A stretch of DNA of 64,000 nt from an uncultured bacterium (GTDB lineage: Bacteria > Babelota > Babeliae > Babelales > Vermiphilaceae): the NCBI GenBank assembly GCA_963707655.1, contig OY970172.1, positions 739,665 through 803,664 of the forward strand, read 5' to 3'. Each line of letters starts with the position of its first letter. Within the stretch, counting starts at the first letter, position 1. Below, in pieces: positions 3,024-13,693 of this stretch. A model generated the notes under the pieces. It worked only from the letters and a program-made list of their open reading frames with translations, was not told where the DNA came from and ran no database searches. Position numbers and translations under genes: made by a program.

Positions 3024-5277
3024 ATGAAAAAATTATTAATTGTAGAGTCACCCGCCAAAATTAAAACGATTACCAAGTTCTTGGGAAAAGATTTCAAGAT
3101 CATGTCCACTATGGGCCATGTCAAGGATCTTCCTACCAAAGAGCTGGGGGTGACCATTAATAAATCTATAAATATTGATTATGTTCCCATTAAGAACAAA
3201 GAGAAAACTATTGCGGAAATCTGCAAAGCTGCTTCAACTTCTGATGAAATCTATTTAGCGCCCGATCCTGACCGTGAGGGTGAAATTATTGCCTGGCACA
3301 TTGAGCAGGAAATACAAAAAGTCGTTAAAAATAAGGCAAAAATTCATCGCATCACCTTTAACGAAATTACCAAACCGGCCATGCTTGAAGCAATTGATCA
3401 CCCGGGAGATGTTGATCTTGATAAAGTTGCCGCTCAACAAGCACGCCGCGTGCTTGATCGCTGGGTGGGCTATGAAGTATCCCCTATTTTATGGAAAAAA
3501 TTAGCTCCGGGCCTTTCTGCCGGGCGCGTGCAATCTGTTGCTCTCCGCCTGATTGCCGATCGTGAAGAAGCTATTCGCGCCTTTAAGCCAGAAGAATATT
3601 GGACCGTTGTCGGCCAATTTTTACATGGTAAAGATTCTATTGAAGCAGAACTGACTGAAATAGGCAAAAATAAAGCTGAAATCAAAAATCAACAGCAAGC
3701 TGATGAGCTGGTTGAAAACATCCAAAAAGAAAGCTATGTTATTGATTCGATTATTGATAAAGCAACGCACCAAAAATCCACTGCCTCCATTTATGACCAG
3801 TACTTTGCAGCAGGCAGCATTTAATCGCTTGGGCTTCAGTGTTAAAAAAACCATGCAAGTTGCCCAACAATTATATGAAGGTATGCCGCTAGAAGACGAA
3901 GCACTCCCGTTGCGTTAATTACCTATATGCGTACCGATTCGTTCCGCCTTTCTGATACGGCGTTAAAACAAGCGCGCGATTTTATTGGCAAAAATTTTGA
4001 TAAAGAATATTTGCCCAAAGAGCACAACGTTTATGAAAAAGCAAAAGGAAAAGGCAAAGCAGCTGCAGCGCAAGATGCTCACGAAGCGGTGCGTCCGATT
4101 AATGTGAACATCACTCCTGAGAAAGCACATAAATATCTACCCAAAGATGTTGCAAAGCTTTATGAACTTATTTGGAAGCGCTTTGTTGCCTGCCAAATGA
4201 AGCCAGCATTATATGCACAGCGCCAAGTGGTTATTAAAGGGGGAGAATTTACCTTTAAAGTCACCGGTTCAACCCTCATATTTGATGGATTCTTGAAAGT
4301 GTACGCCGCGGACGAAGATGAAAAAGAAGACAAAGAATTATTCCTCAAGGGCTTAAAGCTAAAGAAAAAGTTAATCTTAAAAAAGTGATGCCAAAGCAGC
4401 ATTTTACTCAACCGCCACCACGATATACTGAAGCTTCATTGGTCAAAGAGATGGAAAAAGAGGGCATTGGCCGACCAAGTACCTATGCCACTATCATGAA
4501 CACTATTCAGGCGCGCCACTATACCGCTCTTGATACAAAAAAAGATTTACTCCGACTGAACTGGGAATGACGGTAACCAAAATTTTGGTTGAAAATTTAC
4601 CAAAGATTATGGATCTCAAGTTCACGGCACATATGGAAGAAGATCTTGATAAAATTGCTCAAGGTGATCTTGATCGAGATACGTTATTGCGCGGGTTTTA
4701 TGAAGCGTTCCAGCAAGATGTAAAAGAATTCAAAGGCAAAGATGGTAAAAAAGTTGCCGAACCGACCGACATTACCTGTCCAGAATGTGAAAAACCCAAT
4801 CTGGTGATTCGATTTGGAAAAGCAGGAGAATTTTTGGGTTGCCCAGATTATCCTGATTGCGCGTTTACTACCAATTTTAAACGTGATGAAAAAGGGGATA
4901 TTGAAATTGTAAAAACTGAGGGCCCTAAACTGCTCGATGAAAAATGTCCAAAATGCGGCAAACATCTGCGCCAGGTTATTGGTAAGTTTGGTCCCTTCGT
5001 TGCCTGTTCAGGGTATCCTGACTGCAAATATATTAAGCAAAAAAAGGCGGAAGTTCCCTGCTTATCATGTGGCGGCTCATTGGTTGAACGTCGTTGGCGC
5101 GGCGGTACTTTCTGGGGATGTTCAAACTATCCAAAATGTAAGTTCGCCGTATTTGGTGATATTGAAGAAACCCCATGTCCGCAGTGTTCGCGCGCTTACA
5201 TGGCAAAGAAAGTTGATAAACAAGGAAACGCAACCCTGCTTTGCACCGATAAAAAATGTGGGTACAAAAGTAGTTAA
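3024..5277 (+). pseudogene. topA: DNA topoisomerase I; reading frame interrupted at least 4 times (5 ORF fragments)
   Basis: Toprim N-terminus [34 protein letters not shown] (active-site Tyr motif) and [13 protein letters not shown]. There are four C-terminal CxxC...C zinc ribbons (CPECEKP, CPKCGK, CLSCGG, CPQCS). The pieces lie in frames 0/1/0/2/1, with junctions near 3760, 3900, 4380 and 4545. Confidence 0.9.
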
Positions 5278-6566: not shown

Positions 6567-6699
6567 AGAGAAACTCCTTAAAAAAGAGGATACCGCTACA
6601 ACGACACACCATGTATACCATTAACAGTCTTCATTTTTCTACAAAATGCAATTTTCAGGCAAAAAGCTTATTAAGCTCATGCTATCGAGCATGCGTTTT

Positions 6700-6752
6700 G
6701 AAGTTTTATAGATTCAAGAATTGGCTGTATGCATGCTGAGAAATTGTTGAAG
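6700..6752 (+). repeat. 53-bp intergenic repeat, copy 1 (51/53 identical to 12827-12879, same orientation)
   Basis: GAAGTTTTATAGATTCAAGAATTGGCTGTATGCATGCTGAGAAATTGTTGAAG, aligned by eye to copy 2 with 2 mismatches. Confidence 0.85.
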
Positions 6753-6810
6753 AAAAAACATTTTTAGTTTTCTTCATAATTTGAATTTTTTTAGATTGTA
6801 CAGCGCATGA

Positions 6811-7886: not shown

Positions 7887-8477
7887 CTAAAATGCATAAC
7901 CCAAGCTTGCGCCAAATGCAAATCCACCTATTTGCATCCTGCCATTGCTGAATACATTTGCCATCTTTGGACAGACTCTTTTCTTTTCATACGAATATTC
8001 GCCGAAAATGCCGAGTGAGAAACAATCGGCGAGCAACACATTAAAACCGGTATTGGCAAATAAGCCGATACCACTGCCTTTGATTACGCAGTCAACATAC
8101 GGTGAATTGTTGTGTTGATGAAAGTGGAAGTAGCGTGGCCCTATTGCAAAGAAATAGTAAAAGCGTTCACAGAAATTTACTATGGGCCTTAAACCAATAT
8201 CAACCGGTACTACAGCCAAGCTTGTTTTTTCGCAGGAGTTCAATGCATGGCCCCGTGCGTGGCGATAGCCGATGCTGCCATAAAGATCAAGATAATCACA
8301 TAAAGGGAGCGATACACTCCCTTGAATTTCAAAGCCACCATGATTGTAGATGTTCTTAAGCGGAGATGCAGAAAAGAAAAAGTAGCTTGGCTTTATTTCG
8401 AGCAACGGTGTCACATCGGACGCATACTGTGTCAATGCGCACAGCAGCAGAGAAAGTCGGGCGATTTTTTTATACAT
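7887..8477 (-). CDS. small outer-membrane beta-barrel protein (OmpA-like/opacity-type barrel)
   Basis: Signal peptide, alternating hydrophobic beta-strand pattern with Gly/aromatic girdles, and a C-terminal GASLGYAF ending in Phe, typical of BAM substrates. The start is probably the ATG at 8477 (AAGGA Shine-Dalgarno (SD) sequence upstream); the track's GTG at 8498 is the alternative. Confidence 0.65.
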   Translation of the reverse strand: MYKKIARLSLLLCALTQYASDVTPLLEIKPSYFFFSASPLKNIYNHGGFEIQGSVSLPLCDYLDLYGSIGYRHARGHALNSCEKTSLAVVPVDIGLRPIVNFCERFYYFFAIGPRYFHFHQHNNSPYVDCVIKGSGIGLFANTGFNVLLADCFSLGIFGEYSYEKKRVCPKMANVFSNGRMQIGGFAFGASLGYAF

Positions 8478-8494
8478 ACTCATATCCTTTATTT

Positions 8495-11038
8495 TCACGG
8501 AACGGTGACGGTAACCGGTGCACTCATATTGCCATTGGCATCAAACGCAACTAACGAATATACTACCACAACGCCCGGTACCTGATTATGATCTTGGTAC
8601 ACGGACGTAGCGGCGCTTACCGTAGCGATTTGTAAGCCATCACGATACATAAGATAACCGGTCACTCCGGCTGATGAACTCGATGTCCATGTCAGCTGAT
8701 TATAGAGTTCATATTCAAATCCAAAATTATTTTTCTTTTGCATACCCTGAAGATTTGATGGGGGTAAAATAGTTGGTGCAAAACCCAAGAAATCAAATTG
8801 CACAAACGTAGGGTTGCCGATCGGTAGATAAGAGAGCGAATAATTCGGAGTTGTTCCCGTAAAGGTTACGGAATCAAAGGTGCCGGTAATGGCAGAGGAA
8901 GTGAGAATGGTGTATGTTCCCGGAATGGCACTTGGATCTAGGTCGATTTCCAAGGTGCCTGCTAAGGATGCAGGTCCGGTAACAGCGACTAAAGATGTGC
9001 CGCCGGAATCGATTTCGATATGGACAAGGCTTCCGAGGGTGCCCGTAACTGGATCTGCTGAATTGAGGGTCAAACTGCCAAGAGTGAGTGTTCCTCCCGC
9101 TATCTGGAGAGATCGTTCCGGAATTGACAAAGACATTTCCGGTCAATGTCCCGGTCCCGCTCAACGTACCTCTTTGCGCGCTAAAGCCAATGTTTCTACA
9201 GACAAAAATCGATGCTGAATCGATTGATCCATTCACTTTGAAATTCGCATTGTTGATCGTAATGTTCCCTTGATAATCAGTTGTTCCATTGTAAACAACA
9301 GTTCCATTTCCTTTGACAAAGACATTTGTTCCTCCTGCGCCGAAACTGGTGTCATCAATAAACGCGACTTGGTCTCCGAGTGTCAAAAGATCATTAGCAT
9401 CGTTCGCCATGAATGTGAGAGAAGAACCTGCGCGCAGGAAAATACTATTTCCCAATGCTGATCCATCGGAGCCATCTGAACCACCACCGGAGACCGCCAG
9501 TTCCATGAGTTCCTGCTTGTGTTGTATTATTTGACTGTATTGAACGTGGTTGGAATCCCCGGAGAGTGCTTGTAGGGTGAAATTCAAACCGCTATCCACA
9601 AAGATAGCGCCTCCCAGACCGCTTCCGCCGCCACCACCTCCGCCGCCAAAGCCTGATCCAACGGTAGCTGGCCCCAACTCCTCCAGATCCTCCACCCAGA
9701 TTTCCTATATCAGTTCCACCTGAGGCAGTGGAGCCATTAGAGGGTCCACCGCCTGCACCGCCACCGCCGCCAAGAGAATTACCACCTTCTGCAGGCGTAA
9801 TACCAGATTGGTTGACTCCTCCGCCACCGCCCCCTCCGCCAACTCCTCCCGATCCACCTTGTACCGTATAAGCATATATCAGAAGCACCCGGTGCCAGCG
9901 CCACCGCCACCGCCCCCGCCATAGCCACCACTCCCAGCTTGTCCGTCAAATTCATTGCTAGAACCAGTTATGACGACTCCGCCGCCTCCGCCTCCTCCCC
10001 CATCTCCTCCATTGCCTCCGGAAGGCATAATGCACTACCTCCTGGTGGTATAGATGCCTTGAGGCTGAGATCCATTCGATCCGGCGCTTCCACCACCGCC
10101 GCCGCCCGCATTACCGCCTCCGCTATCATCTCCACCGCCGCCGCCGCCCGCATTATTTCCTCCACTATTACCTCCTCCACCAGAACCAGCGGTAATTGAG
10201 AGACCATAACCATTTCCATCCTGTCCGCCATCTTGATCCGAGCCTCCATTCCCCAGATTCGTGAGCGTTCCTATAGTGGCGCGAGATCCTAGGCCTCCGC
10301 CTCCGCCACCGCCGCCTCCACCGACTGTCGTCTGTCGAAAGAGTGACATCTCCACCATCTCCACCAAAACCCCTCCTCCAGCGCCTCCGGTGCTTCCGGT
10401 GGTTGTAATAGAACCTCCATTTCCGCTAAAGCCGCCGCCACCGCCACCCCCTCATTGCCTGTAAAGAGACCTAAATAACTTCCTCCATTTCCACCAACAG
10501 CAGAGCAATCGTTGATCGATACATTCATCAAGGTAATTGAAGGATTTGAACCATTTAAAAAGGATTGAGGTGCGTAAATGGCCCCTCCGGCACCCATGCC
10601 ACCGCCGCCGCCTGAAATTCCGTCTCCGCCATTGCCTCCTTTTGCGGTCAGGTTTTGAAAGATCATGTTTTGGATCGTCACATTCCCCATTGGGATAAAA
10701 AATCCGCTGTAAGCGCCGCTGTTACCGTCAATAGTGACGGTAGGAGTAGAGCCTGGGTTGCCAATGGTGATATTCACAGGATTTGAGGAATTGTTAATAA
10801 TCGGCAGAATTCCATTGAGTTGAATAGTCATCGGAGAGGCAAAAACAATCGCATAATCATCGGGTGTTGTGTTTAAACCTTGATTCATTGTATTCAAGCA
10901 ATATCTCAGATCACCCACCTCTCCAATGCCACCCGGATTATTATCTGAGCTTATTGTTACATTGAGCGTTGTTAAGGCACACAAAGAATGTGAAGTGAAA
11001 AGAAAAATCAAATATTTGAATTTGAACATGAGAAACAC
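8495..11038 (-). pseudogene. Pmp-like / autotransporter-passenger-like Gly-rich surface protein, fragmented into at least 6 frames
   Basis: Signal peptide at 11038. FxxN+GGAI pair (IFQN...GGAIYA, about 10577-10588) and a second GGAIFV. Passenger-type beta-strand repeat GTLSGTGTLTGNVFVNSGTISP. Long (GGN)n tracts. C-terminal Fn3-like domain (LTWTSSSSAGVTGYLMYRDG...YSLVAFDANGNMSAPVTVTVP). One frame break maps to a G5 run near 10452. Confidence 0.6.
9590..10470 (-). repeat. GGN-rich low-complexity coding tract (poly-Gly; poly-Pro on the opposite strand)
   Basis: Runs of GGCGGTGGCGGAGG-type codons. Every frame on both strands gives G-, A/E/V-, R/W- or P-rich ORFs in the track. Confidence 0.8.
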
Positions 11039-11162
11039 CTTTAATTATTTTTTAGCGTCAGGCAACTATCTTTTTAGCATCATAGTGTGTAAGAAAAAAT
11101 TATTCAATGCTTAAAATTTGGAAGAGAGGAAAATTCGTTTTTTTGAGGAATGTAGTTAGGTC

Positions 11163-12014
11163 TCATAGCGAATGCAATCGTTGCATAGCGAATTTTGCCA
11201 CTTTGTGCGACAATGTGAGGAGTTGGGTAGATGGAAAATTCTGTGAGAAGCGCTCCGGGAATGAGTAAGATAGAATTTTGATCCTAACCGCGAGAAAACT
11301 TTCTGAGAGGAGAAGAAAAATCATCGACGGTGAATGATGATTTATACGGAGAAAGAAGAAGTGATTCGTTGTCTGTGCTATCAAGAAACAGAGAAAACGC
11401 AGTTCCATCGTAATGAGGCCTTGATGGCACTGTAAGAGGGAAGATATTTGATTACCTTGAAAAGAATAGGGGGCTGTCCGTATTGAGAAGAAAAAATCGT
11501 TTCCAAACCTAACTCAGCTGCCGCCTCATCAAATAGATCTCCGTATGGCTTTTGAATCTCAGAACAAGCTTCAAAAAAACGGATGATTTCAGGAACTGCG
11601 TTTAAATTCTGGGTAGTGAGAGCAAATAAATTCATGGAAATGGGTCGAATAATAGAAGGAGATCTGGCTTCTTCCTTCTCTTTCTGATTCGTCGTAGAAA
11701 CCAAAAAAATCAGTGGAGTAGTAATTTCTATCTTTTGAGCGAATAAAACGTTCTTTTGCGCTATATAATTTTTGTGCCCAAACGGGATTTGTTTGAAGAA
11801 ATTCGATGAGCTCATCAAAATATGCATAGAGAGAATCAAACGTTGCCGTTCCATGATTCTTATCGCAAATTTCGACATACCCTGCTTGCTTGAATTGCTC
11901 TGCCAGAGGCATTGCACAAAGAGATTGAAATGCAAACAGGAGAAAAATATAGAGGAACAAAGTCTTTCGAATAATCATGAAGGAATCGTATAATTTATTC
12001 TTCGAGGTTGTCAA
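11163..12014 (-). pseudogene. disrupted hypothetical gene, possibly 2OG-Fe(II) oxygenase-like
   Basis: Three overlapping ORF fragments in different frames. Reading across them gives ...KAxHYDGTAFSLFLD... and ...PTPHIV..., a possible HxD...H facial triad. The assignment is weak. Confidence 0.35.
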
Positions 12015-12723: not shown

Positions 12724-12826
12724 TCTTTGGGCTTCCCTTTTTTTTACTGATTTTACTGGAGTGTAATACCTCGTTGTCCCTGAGGTCAATATTTTTTTTT
12801 AGTGCAAAATAATAACTTCTTTTTTC

Positions 12827-12879
12827 GAAGTTTTATAGATTCAAGAATTGGCTGTATGCATGCCGAGAAATTGATGAAG
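12827..12879 (+). repeat. 53-bp intergenic repeat, copy 2
   Basis: GAAGTTTTATAGATTCAAGAATTGGCTGTATGCATGCCGAGAAATTGATGAAG; see copy 1 at 6700-6752. Confidence 0.85.
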
Positions 12880-12961
12880 GATAAGTGAGTGTTACTGTAT
12901 CCAGCAGTGGACGACCATTGAGCAGCGAAGAAGAATTTTTGCGTTTAAAGCGAACAATTTT

Positions 12962-13693
12962 TTATTTTTGGAAACGTTTTTTTACTTCTGTGATTTGCTC
13001 TTTATCACCAAAAACACACGCTAAGAATAATCTCTTACTGGTGATGTTTGGTTCTGAATGAACGGCCGCGTTGTCACAATCGCCGACTAAAAAGAAAGCG
13101 CCTTCACCTTGTTTTGGGGATACACTCTTGGCAGGATCCAGCTGCTTTGCCGCATGGATTCTTCCGGCTTTCTCATTCTCATTGCGCAGACCGTCAAGTA
13201 CTATTTCCCGCTCTTCACTTGTTGCGGGGAAAAAAAGTGTGTGCGGGCCTTGGAATGTTGCAACAAATTTTGGAGGATTCTTATCATATGGTTTGTAATA
13301 TCCACCGTCAATATGCCAGCGTGGTATGGCAAAGGAATCATTTGGCTCCGACGCACGTAAAAAAATCATGACAGCTTCTTTGTTAACCATAGTTCCTGCG
13401 TATTGCACAATGCTGTTAATTACCATGCATGCTCGAGCAATATCCTCTTCCTTGGTATTGCCAAGTTCTCGCAAAAAGGGTGCTACATGCGCTTTGATCT
13501 CTTTGATTGAGCCATAATACTCAAACTGTGGAGCGTCTTTTATTTCTAATTGCTCCAGCACAGCTATATCTTCCGTGCTAATCGGTAATGGAACAAACAC
13601 AAATGGTTGAGAAGCATCGGGAAGTCCGGCAAAGAGAGAAAAGTAAAAATTGCACAGTAATATAAGGATCATTTTTTTCATAAAAAAACTCAC
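12962..13693 (-). CDS. secreted hypothetical protein
   Basis: Signal peptide MKKMILILLCNFYFSLFA. Contains PRWHIDGGYY and AAVHSEP, a possible HxD...H metal triad that remains unproven. Confidence 0.5.
   Translation of the reverse strand: MSFFMKKMILILLCNFYFSLFAGLPDASQPFVFVPLPISTEDIAVLEQLEIKDAPQFEYYGSIKEIKAHVAPFLRELGNTKEEDIARACMVINSIVQYAGTMVNKEAVMIFLRASEPNDSFAIPRWHIDGGYYKPYDKNPPKFVATFQGPHTLFFPATSEEREIVLDGLRNENEKAGRIHAAKQLDPAKSVSPKQGEGAFFLVGDCDNAAVHSEPNITSKRLFLACVFGDKEQITEVKKRFQK

Follow-up and report, generated by a model that had tools for sequence, protein, structure and literature searches.

The DNA analysed here, called the window throughout, is a stretch of 64,000 nucleotides (nt) from an uncultured bacterium of the Babeliales, in the Dependentiae (GTDB lineage Babelota, Vermiphilaceae; contig OY970172.1 of assembly GCA_963707655.1, positions 739,665 to 803,664). 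On its minus strand lies what we consider to be probably a conserved three-gene cassette, composed of an autotransporter-derived passenger with a C-terminal tag, a cognate eight-stranded anchor barrel, and an accessory protein. The passenger would descend from the type Va autotransporters of environmental chlamydiae, with the linker and 12-stranded barrel of the latter replaced by an Fn3-like C-terminal domain (CTD). It would be exported by the Sec pathway as an adhesin-like protein of about 840 amino acids (aa), rich in beta-helix and glycine; the small barrel would be inserted in the outer membrane by the beta-barrel assembly machinery (BAM), and would hold the CTD non-covalently on its long protruding strands and unusually conserved loops, a hold that would anchor the passenger to the outer membrane. 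Candidate routes for the crossing of the outer membrane are a secretin pathway and a BAM-coupled step; two Omp85-family genes and two secretins are present in the window genome. The analysis shows homology, folds, gene linkage, co-occurrence and co-divergence; physical binding of the CTD to the barrel, the surface location and the export route are what we infer.

The passenger gene (8495..11029, minus strand) would encode about 840 aa if intact, in the order leader, N-terminal beta-helix, Gly-rich middle, C-terminal beta-helix, and Fn3-like CTD; in the sequence its stop codon, TGA, occupies 8497-8495. A spacer of 17 nt containing AAGGA (8478..8494, minus strand) separates this stop from the ATG of the outer-membrane barrel gene (7887..8477, minus strand; ATG at 8477, stop at 7889-7887), the product of which (P0001) has a signal peptide, a predicted eight-stranded barrel, and a C-terminus ending in GYAF. 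The first-pass annotation had already described this downstream barrel with its gap and its ending; the open reading frame (ORF) is of 196 aa. The gap is 17 nt also in locus L002, and 13-31 nt in the other loci with a main-type barrel (E below about 1e-49). No terminator-like site lies between the passenger and barrel genes, and a scan for promoters and terminators gave nothing above shuffles.

P0121, the intact passenger orthologue of 849 aa from L002, served as stand-in for the window passenger in modelling. In its AlphaFold2 (AF2) model (mean predicted local distance difference test score, pLDDT, 67.9), an N-terminal beta-helix (residues 17-180) is followed by a low-confidence Gly-rich stretch (residues 186-465; 46% Gly over 280 residues), a confident C-terminal beta-helix (residues 470-750), and a beta-sandwich, the CTD (residues 755-849). 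A hydrophobic N-terminus (MFKFKYLIFLF...CAL) is kept in passenger alignment A2, and the leader is read from this hydrophobicity. The CTD (8498..8791, minus strand) is intact in the window, according to AF2, Foldseek, a CTD profile, and alignment A4; Foldseek matched the sandwich to many Fn3 structures at target-normalised template-modelling (TM) scores of 0.6-0.75, and the Fn3 model PF00041 scored 24.6 against a threshold of 25 bits in the relative P0250, with no match in P0121. The leader, beta-helix, Gly-rich tract, and terminal Fn3-like domain proposed from the letters of the window were thus all recovered, the last three on the model of P0121.

Homologues of the passenger number 679, each of about 840 aa; identity is 64-79% among the Dependentiae copies and 68-73% with the chlamydial copies. 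When all window pieces, P0121, the barrel, and the accessory protein were scanned against Pfam and NCBIfam, no match came out, and no Pfam model matched P0121; PF02415, PF12951, and PF03797 had no match in the window passenger pieces or in P0121 even at E<=5, and PF03797 is absent across the window genome at E<=0.01. Intact passenger orthologues terminate at the Fn3 domain. The absence of a C-terminal translocator, which had been read from the window, therefore holds, and the thought that a restored passenger could carry a translocator of its own finds nothing in the intact orthologues. The chlamydial Pmp-style motifs did not survive: GGA[ILV] occurs twice in the passenger (0.55 times on average in shuffles, 10% of which reach 2) and FxxN twice (2.4 times on average in shuffles). 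As these motifs are no commoner than in shuffles, the Pmp-type label is unsupported, and with PF02415 lacking a match as well, it was rejected.

The AF2 model of the barrel (28 homologues; pLDDT 84.6) has eight strands, three of them of 18-19 residues, with turns of 2-4 residues on one side and longer loops on the other. Best Foldseek matches were the OmpA transmembrane domain, OmpW (TM score 0.73/0.78), NspA, OmpX, and Ail, with probability 1.0 against 1bxw, 2f1v, 1p4t, and 1qj9. On this model the protein is predicted to share the features of the small-barrel fold class: it has eight transmembrane strands in antiparallel order, and its last residue is aromatic, here F. Close homologues are 172 in number at 60-81% identity, the named ones being from Babeliales or Dependentiae. 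The family models gave little: HMM scans of P0001 returned neither PF13505 nor PF03797, both of which had been suggested as search models; PF01389, PF13505, and the OmpW models had no match above threshold for P0001 or P0009; PF13505 gave weak signals only, in barrel relatives (E 0.003, and one precomputed match for P0058); and a profile search of the PDB with the barrel gave nothing. Conservation of the loops (0.65-0.78) is about equal to that of the strands (0.72-0.94), which is unusual for a free surface porin.

A query made of the passenger C-terminus matched 1038 representatives. Among the best 150 of these the CTD was present in 116, and in 108 of the 116 it ended at most 8 residues from the C-terminus; the exceptions were mostly long proteins with tandem Fn3 repeats. 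Among the proteins that carry it are YVTN/lactonase beta-propellers, BNR/sialidase-like proteins, and right-handed beta-helices; in G053 a Gly-rich protein and a propeller protein have the tail in common. Judged by sequence similarity, the CTD is a portable C-terminal tag. The window genome also encodes a YVTN-type beta-propeller of 449 aa with an Fn3 tail and no adjacent barrel gene (G000:C1:671974-673320, minus strand), by which tagged cargos can be unlinked from the barrel. The tail-barrel system is expanded in some genomes: G097 has three CTD-cargo/barrel pairs in tandem (G097:C2:41142-46476), and G193 has 19 CTD hits and only two barrels, plus one classical autotransporter.

A tentative broader reading is that the Fn3 tail and the barrel form a self-standing, undescribed sorting or anchoring system of Chlamydiota and Dependentiae, independent of both type IX secretion (the T9SS) and the type V barrel, in which varied tagged cargos would be exported and displayed via the small barrel, possibly during BAM-mediated assembly. 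Its functional counterpart would be in the T9SS, the type-B CTD proteins of which are reported to bind PorP/SprF-like barrels (PMC9143113). Shared with that system are a beta-sandwich C-terminal domain on varied large cargos, a cognate barrel gene directly downstream, paralogous pairs in one genome, and a proposed non-covalent anchoring; the barrel here is, in contrast, far smaller, with eight strands, and is carried by Dependentiae and Chlamydiota rather than by Bacteroidota. The T9SS sorting-domain and PorP/SprF (PF11751) models found nothing in cargo or barrel, neither of which had a Pfam or NCBIfam match at E<=5, and the SprA model PF14349 had no match in the window genome, nor in the control genomes.

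The origin of the passenger was traced by a scan of its C-terminal 370 aa against 1.84 billion representative proteins, in which beta-helix relatives with other C-termini were found. P0253 and P0248 end in a PF03797 barrel (E 5e-33 and 2e-35, respectively); P0254 and P0252 have the same passenger, followed by an Ig-like domain and an OmpA_membrane (PF01389) barrel; and P0278, a relative of the C-terminal helix, scores above the threshold for a PATR repeat. Over residues 2-754, P0253 and P0121 are 66% identical, and P0253 then carries PF03797; the similarity breaks off at FVQF-x-F/L-LG, exactly at the start of the Fn3 tail of P0121. At least 80 clusters of PF03797-fused proteins of about 1150 aa, from Rhabdochlamydiaceae and other genomes of the Planctomycetes-Verrucomicrobia-Chlamydiae group, show about 65% identity across the passenger body, some of them named 'autotransporter domain-containing protein [Rhabdochlamydiaceae bacterium]'. 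Both forms are present in L007, where the end of a CTD cargo and a small barrel are followed, 3.8 kb on, by the 290-aa accessory gene and the PF03797-fused P0460. The sequence evidence supports the passenger as a true relative of classical autotransporter passengers. Classical autotransporters as such occur in 18 of 261 Dependentiae genomes and are unrelated to the window passenger.

In a comparison with the type Va autotransporters that environmental chlamydiae carry (e.g. P0460, annotated 'autotransporter domain-containing protein'), the leader, both beta-helices, and the Gly-rich middle are the same, at about 65% identity up to FVQF-x-F/L-LG, and so is the 290-aa accessory gene upstream; different here are the lack of the linker and the 12-stranded PF03797 barrel, and the presence of an Fn3 tail with an unrelated eight-stranded barrel gene. 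In profile comparisons the small barrel had no similarity to the PF03797 barrel of P0460, nor to the fused OmpA-type barrel of P0254, and for this reason the fused eight-stranded forms are treated as analogous, not shown to be homologous. The change was a domain swap, with the linker and 12-stranded barrel going out and the Fn3 tail and a separate gene coming in. A literal split of an autotransporter is not supported: the small barrel has no detectable PF03797 similarity, and its closed eight-stranded fold is unlikely to be a translocation pore. Of the split autotransporter pair proposed by the first-pass annotation, the autotransporter-related passenger and the two-gene unit stand, but the barrel is not PF03797-like, and the pair arose by a swap rather than a cut. 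A passenger of 68% identity in L006 (4971-7292; from a metagenome-assembled genome labelled Rhodanobacteraceae) ends after the beta-helix with neither tail nor barrel, flanked by RNase R and cytochrome bc1 genes; this form could be truncated, released, or from a mis-binned contig.

These relatives also bear on whether the small barrel is a true split translocator that carries the passenger across the outer membrane, e.g. as a transient hybrid with BamA, the CTD engaging the nascent barrel in the periplasm. Since the same body occurs with built-in PF03797 and with fused OmpA_membrane-type barrels, the small barrel occupies the position of the translocator; the genome lacks PF03797 and has two Omp85-family genes, and the order of passenger then barrel, with the gap of 13-31 nt, is tightly kept. 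We nevertheless regard such a role as unlikely, given the closed OmpA/OmpX/OmpW-type fold of eight strands, the lack of PF03797 similarity, the oddness of a folded Fn3 domain as a threading substrate, and the several genomes in which CTD cargos far outnumber barrels.

The anchor reading draws further on linkage. Genes with the same Fn3 tail show strong linkage to the barrel family. With linkage taken as a CTD-bearing ORF ending at most 250 nt upstream of the barrel on the same strand, 35 of the 40 distinct barrels from Dependentiae loci show it; for three of the remaining five, a CTD gene is nearby, but broken, divergent, or 1 kb off. The window genome itself has a second pair (L015; G000:C1:1026551-1029976, plus strand), in which a beta-helix protein of 897 aa (PF13229) with the same Fn3 tail is followed after 70 nt by a diverged barrel of 221 aa (G000:C1:1029314-1029976). 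Across the 261 Dependentiae genomes, the barrel (narrow profile) was found in 37 and the CTD in 49, with both in 34, the barrel only in three, and the CTD only in 15; a broader barrel profile recovered barrels in eight of ten tested 'CTD-only' genomes, mostly directly after the CTD. In the phylum of Estrella the barrel family is present in 90 of 300 sampled genomes, and in 20 Chlamydiota loci inspected the CTD gene is directly upstream in 11 and adjacent but divergent in two, with seven orphan barrels. Over 13 full modules, in a correlation that ignores shared ancestry, barrel identity follows CTD identity (r=0.75) more closely than body identity (r=0.41); the body is the best conserved part, at 71%, ahead of the CTD at 55% and the barrel at 50%. 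The pair suspected from the window alone is no chance neighbourhood: it is a conserved unit in relatives, in fact of three genes.

The same counts weigh on a plainer explanation, in which the barrel is a generic, small porin-like outer-membrane protein, merely co-transcribed and with no specific contact to the CTD. Its fold is the commonest among small outer-membrane proteins, seven of 20 chlamydial barrels lack a neighbouring CTD gene, and three Dependentiae genomes have a barrel with no CTD detected. The explanation is improbable in view of the CTD gene that adjoins 35 of 40 Dependentiae barrels, the paralogous pairs in one genome (three in tandem in G097), the closer tracking of the barrel by the CTD than by the passenger body, and a loop conservation atypical for a free surface porin.

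The third member of the cassette, the accessory gene (11104..11978, minus strand; located by tblastn with P0122), would encode 290 aa with a hydrophobic N-terminal leader if intact, and is here in three frames. In each of the 11 Dependentiae loci long enough to show it, this gene immediately precedes the passenger, as it does also in L002, L003 (Estrella lausannensis), L004, L007, and L008, of which L003 and L004 are chlamydial. Because it also stands beside the PF03797-fused form, it goes with the passenger body rather than the anchor, and for the same reason the protein probably modifies or chaperones the passenger body. H188-x-D190, H254, and R263 are invariant in 13 sequences (alignment A3), and this HxD..H..R pattern resembles the triad of 2-oxoglutarate-Fe(II) oxygenases; sequence models had no match, and the protein had neither a Pfam match nor a PDB sequence match.

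The passenger is not one ORF in the window; between 11029 and 8495 it is scattered over the three reading frames in pieces, which were located in the window's own genome. Frameshift-aware alignment to P0121 gave 12 frame changes (at about 10453, 10373, 10320, 10052, 10033, 9881, 9874, 9666, 9563, 9535, 9492, and 9098, minus strand), no in-frame stop, and 664 of 834 codons identical. The essential gene topA (window 3024-5277, plus strand) is likewise split, into five consecutive ORFs of 266, 71, 153, 61, and 236 aa, which points to single-base indel errors throughout the assembled genome. In a sister genome (L001 = G192; contig of 995,664 bp) the same passenger gene is in five pieces; in L002, a contig from a separate public assembly (Logan) 97% identical to L001, it is intact, and over 4.2 kb the two contigs are set apart by 22 indels of one or two bases. 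Because topA, too, is split and relatives carry an intact gene of about 840 aa, the 12 breaks in the passenger are most likely assembly indel errors. The idea of a decayed unit, raised by the first-pass annotation, was set aside, the breaks being indels only and the orthologues intact.

That the window copy is truly broken, as a pseudogene or by phase variation via its G-rich tracts, with the cassette non-functional in this organism, is doubtful. Reduced endosymbiont genomes do accumulate pseudogenes, several of the 12 frame changes lie in or beside G runs, and the adjoining accessory gene is broken too; yet the aligned path has no nonsense codon, the 80% identity to the intact orthologue is the same as among intact orthologues, the essential topA is in five ORFs in the same window, completeness is just 88.6% for a single-contig genome, and the related long contig is broken likewise where its counterpart from a separate public assembly is intact.

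Several points weigh against the cassette as an anchoring unit. Contact between CTD and barrel is something we infer; seven of 20 Chlamydiota barrels are orphans; an orphan CTD propeller stands in the window genome, and G193 has 19 CTDs to two barrels; the comparison of r=0.75 with r=0.41 leaves shared ancestry in; the accessory protein fits no oxygenase model; and the frameshifts in the passenger could, with low probability, be real. Anchoring on the outer face also needs a separate export step, because an eight-stranded barrel has periplasmic termini and no pore. Type Va autotransporter passengers are surface-exposed. A periplasmic scaffold, in which the cargo would stay in the periplasm, tethered by the barrel beneath the outer membrane, is very unlikely: the periplasmic termini of the barrel mean that the N-terminal passenger of P0254 and P0252 would start in the periplasm, and no dedicated exporter was identified, but the periplasmic turns of the model, of 2-4 residues, leave little to bind, and the sister form is a classical autotransporter, of the surface-exposed type.

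Other known systems resemble the anchored cassette in part. With OmpX, Ail, NspA, OmpW, and the OmpA transmembrane domain, the barrel shares the fold, long strands protruding beyond the membrane, and an aromatic C-terminus; it differs in having no sequence-family match, in being coupled to a tagged cargo gene, and in loops that are conserved, not variable. In the AIDA-I/Aah and TibA/TibC operons, the gene for a dedicated modifying enzyme lies directly upstream of the autotransporter adhesin. Similarly, a small accessory gene invariably stands here before a repetitive beta-helix passenger; the accessory protein has, unlike those enzymes, a leader peptide and an HxD..H..R signature, and not a heptosyltransferase fold. 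Two-partner secretion (type Vb) also places cargo and outer-membrane partner on separate polypeptides in one operon, but the partner here does not belong to the 16-stranded Omp85/POTRA transporters, nor does the cargo carry a two-partner secretion (TPS) domain. This system was rejected as a candidate, the partner being an eight-stranded barrel of 196 aa and the cargo having no TPS or other Pfam domain. A Pmp-like autotransporter has been described for Waddlia (PMC6490308). Full-text searches on split autotransporters and on the autotransporters and outer membrane of Dependentiae turned up no account of the present arrangement; new here would be a type V-derived passenger with a two-gene anchor.

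Main-type barrels are scattered, with 17 of the 261 Dependentiae genomes, in five families, having one, and in the tree a branch that is supported, though very short, has the chlamydia-labelled sequences all to one side. The scatter fits transfer between Dependentiae and Chlamydiota, both amoeba-associated phyla. Going by L003 and L004, Dependentiae and Chlamydiota share about 70% identity in the cassette, and only about 41% in the barrel; cross-phylum transfer followed by faster change in the anchor parts is suggested. The named homologues of passenger and barrel are called 'hypothetical protein' or 'putative secreted protein'; a few other cargos do have names, e.g. YVTN beta-propeller or sialidase family.

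Around the cassette, a 62-nt direct repeat borders a block of 6.1 kb (left copy 6696..6757; right copy 12823..12884, 92% identical to the left), with these two copies only in the genome. Inside the block, the barrel, passenger, and accessory genes are accompanied by a 219-aa gene and an isochorismatase-like gene; the repeats could be duplicated promoter regions or island borders. Beyond the right copy (window 12962-13693, minus strand) a second exported protein of 243 aa (WHIDG ... VHSEP, i.e. HxD...H), with no Pfam match, may be another oxygenase-like secreted protein.

The recurrence of the two-gene arrangement in amoeba-associated bacteria points to an undescribed mode of mounting proteins on the outer membrane. 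One passenger body occurs with three C-terminal solutions (a 12-stranded translocator, a fused OmpA-type barrel, and an Fn3 tail with a small barrel), a natural experiment, and comparing the three lets one probe what truly depends on the autotransporter barrel, a question that type V research has yet to answer. There is an annotation gap, with no Pfam or NCBIfam model covering the barrel or the passenger. The surface biology of these intracellular, amoeba-associated bacteria is almost unknown; the Fn3 tail is a candidate sorting signal on many of their secreted proteins in two phyla, and would therefore offer a way to predict the surface proteome.

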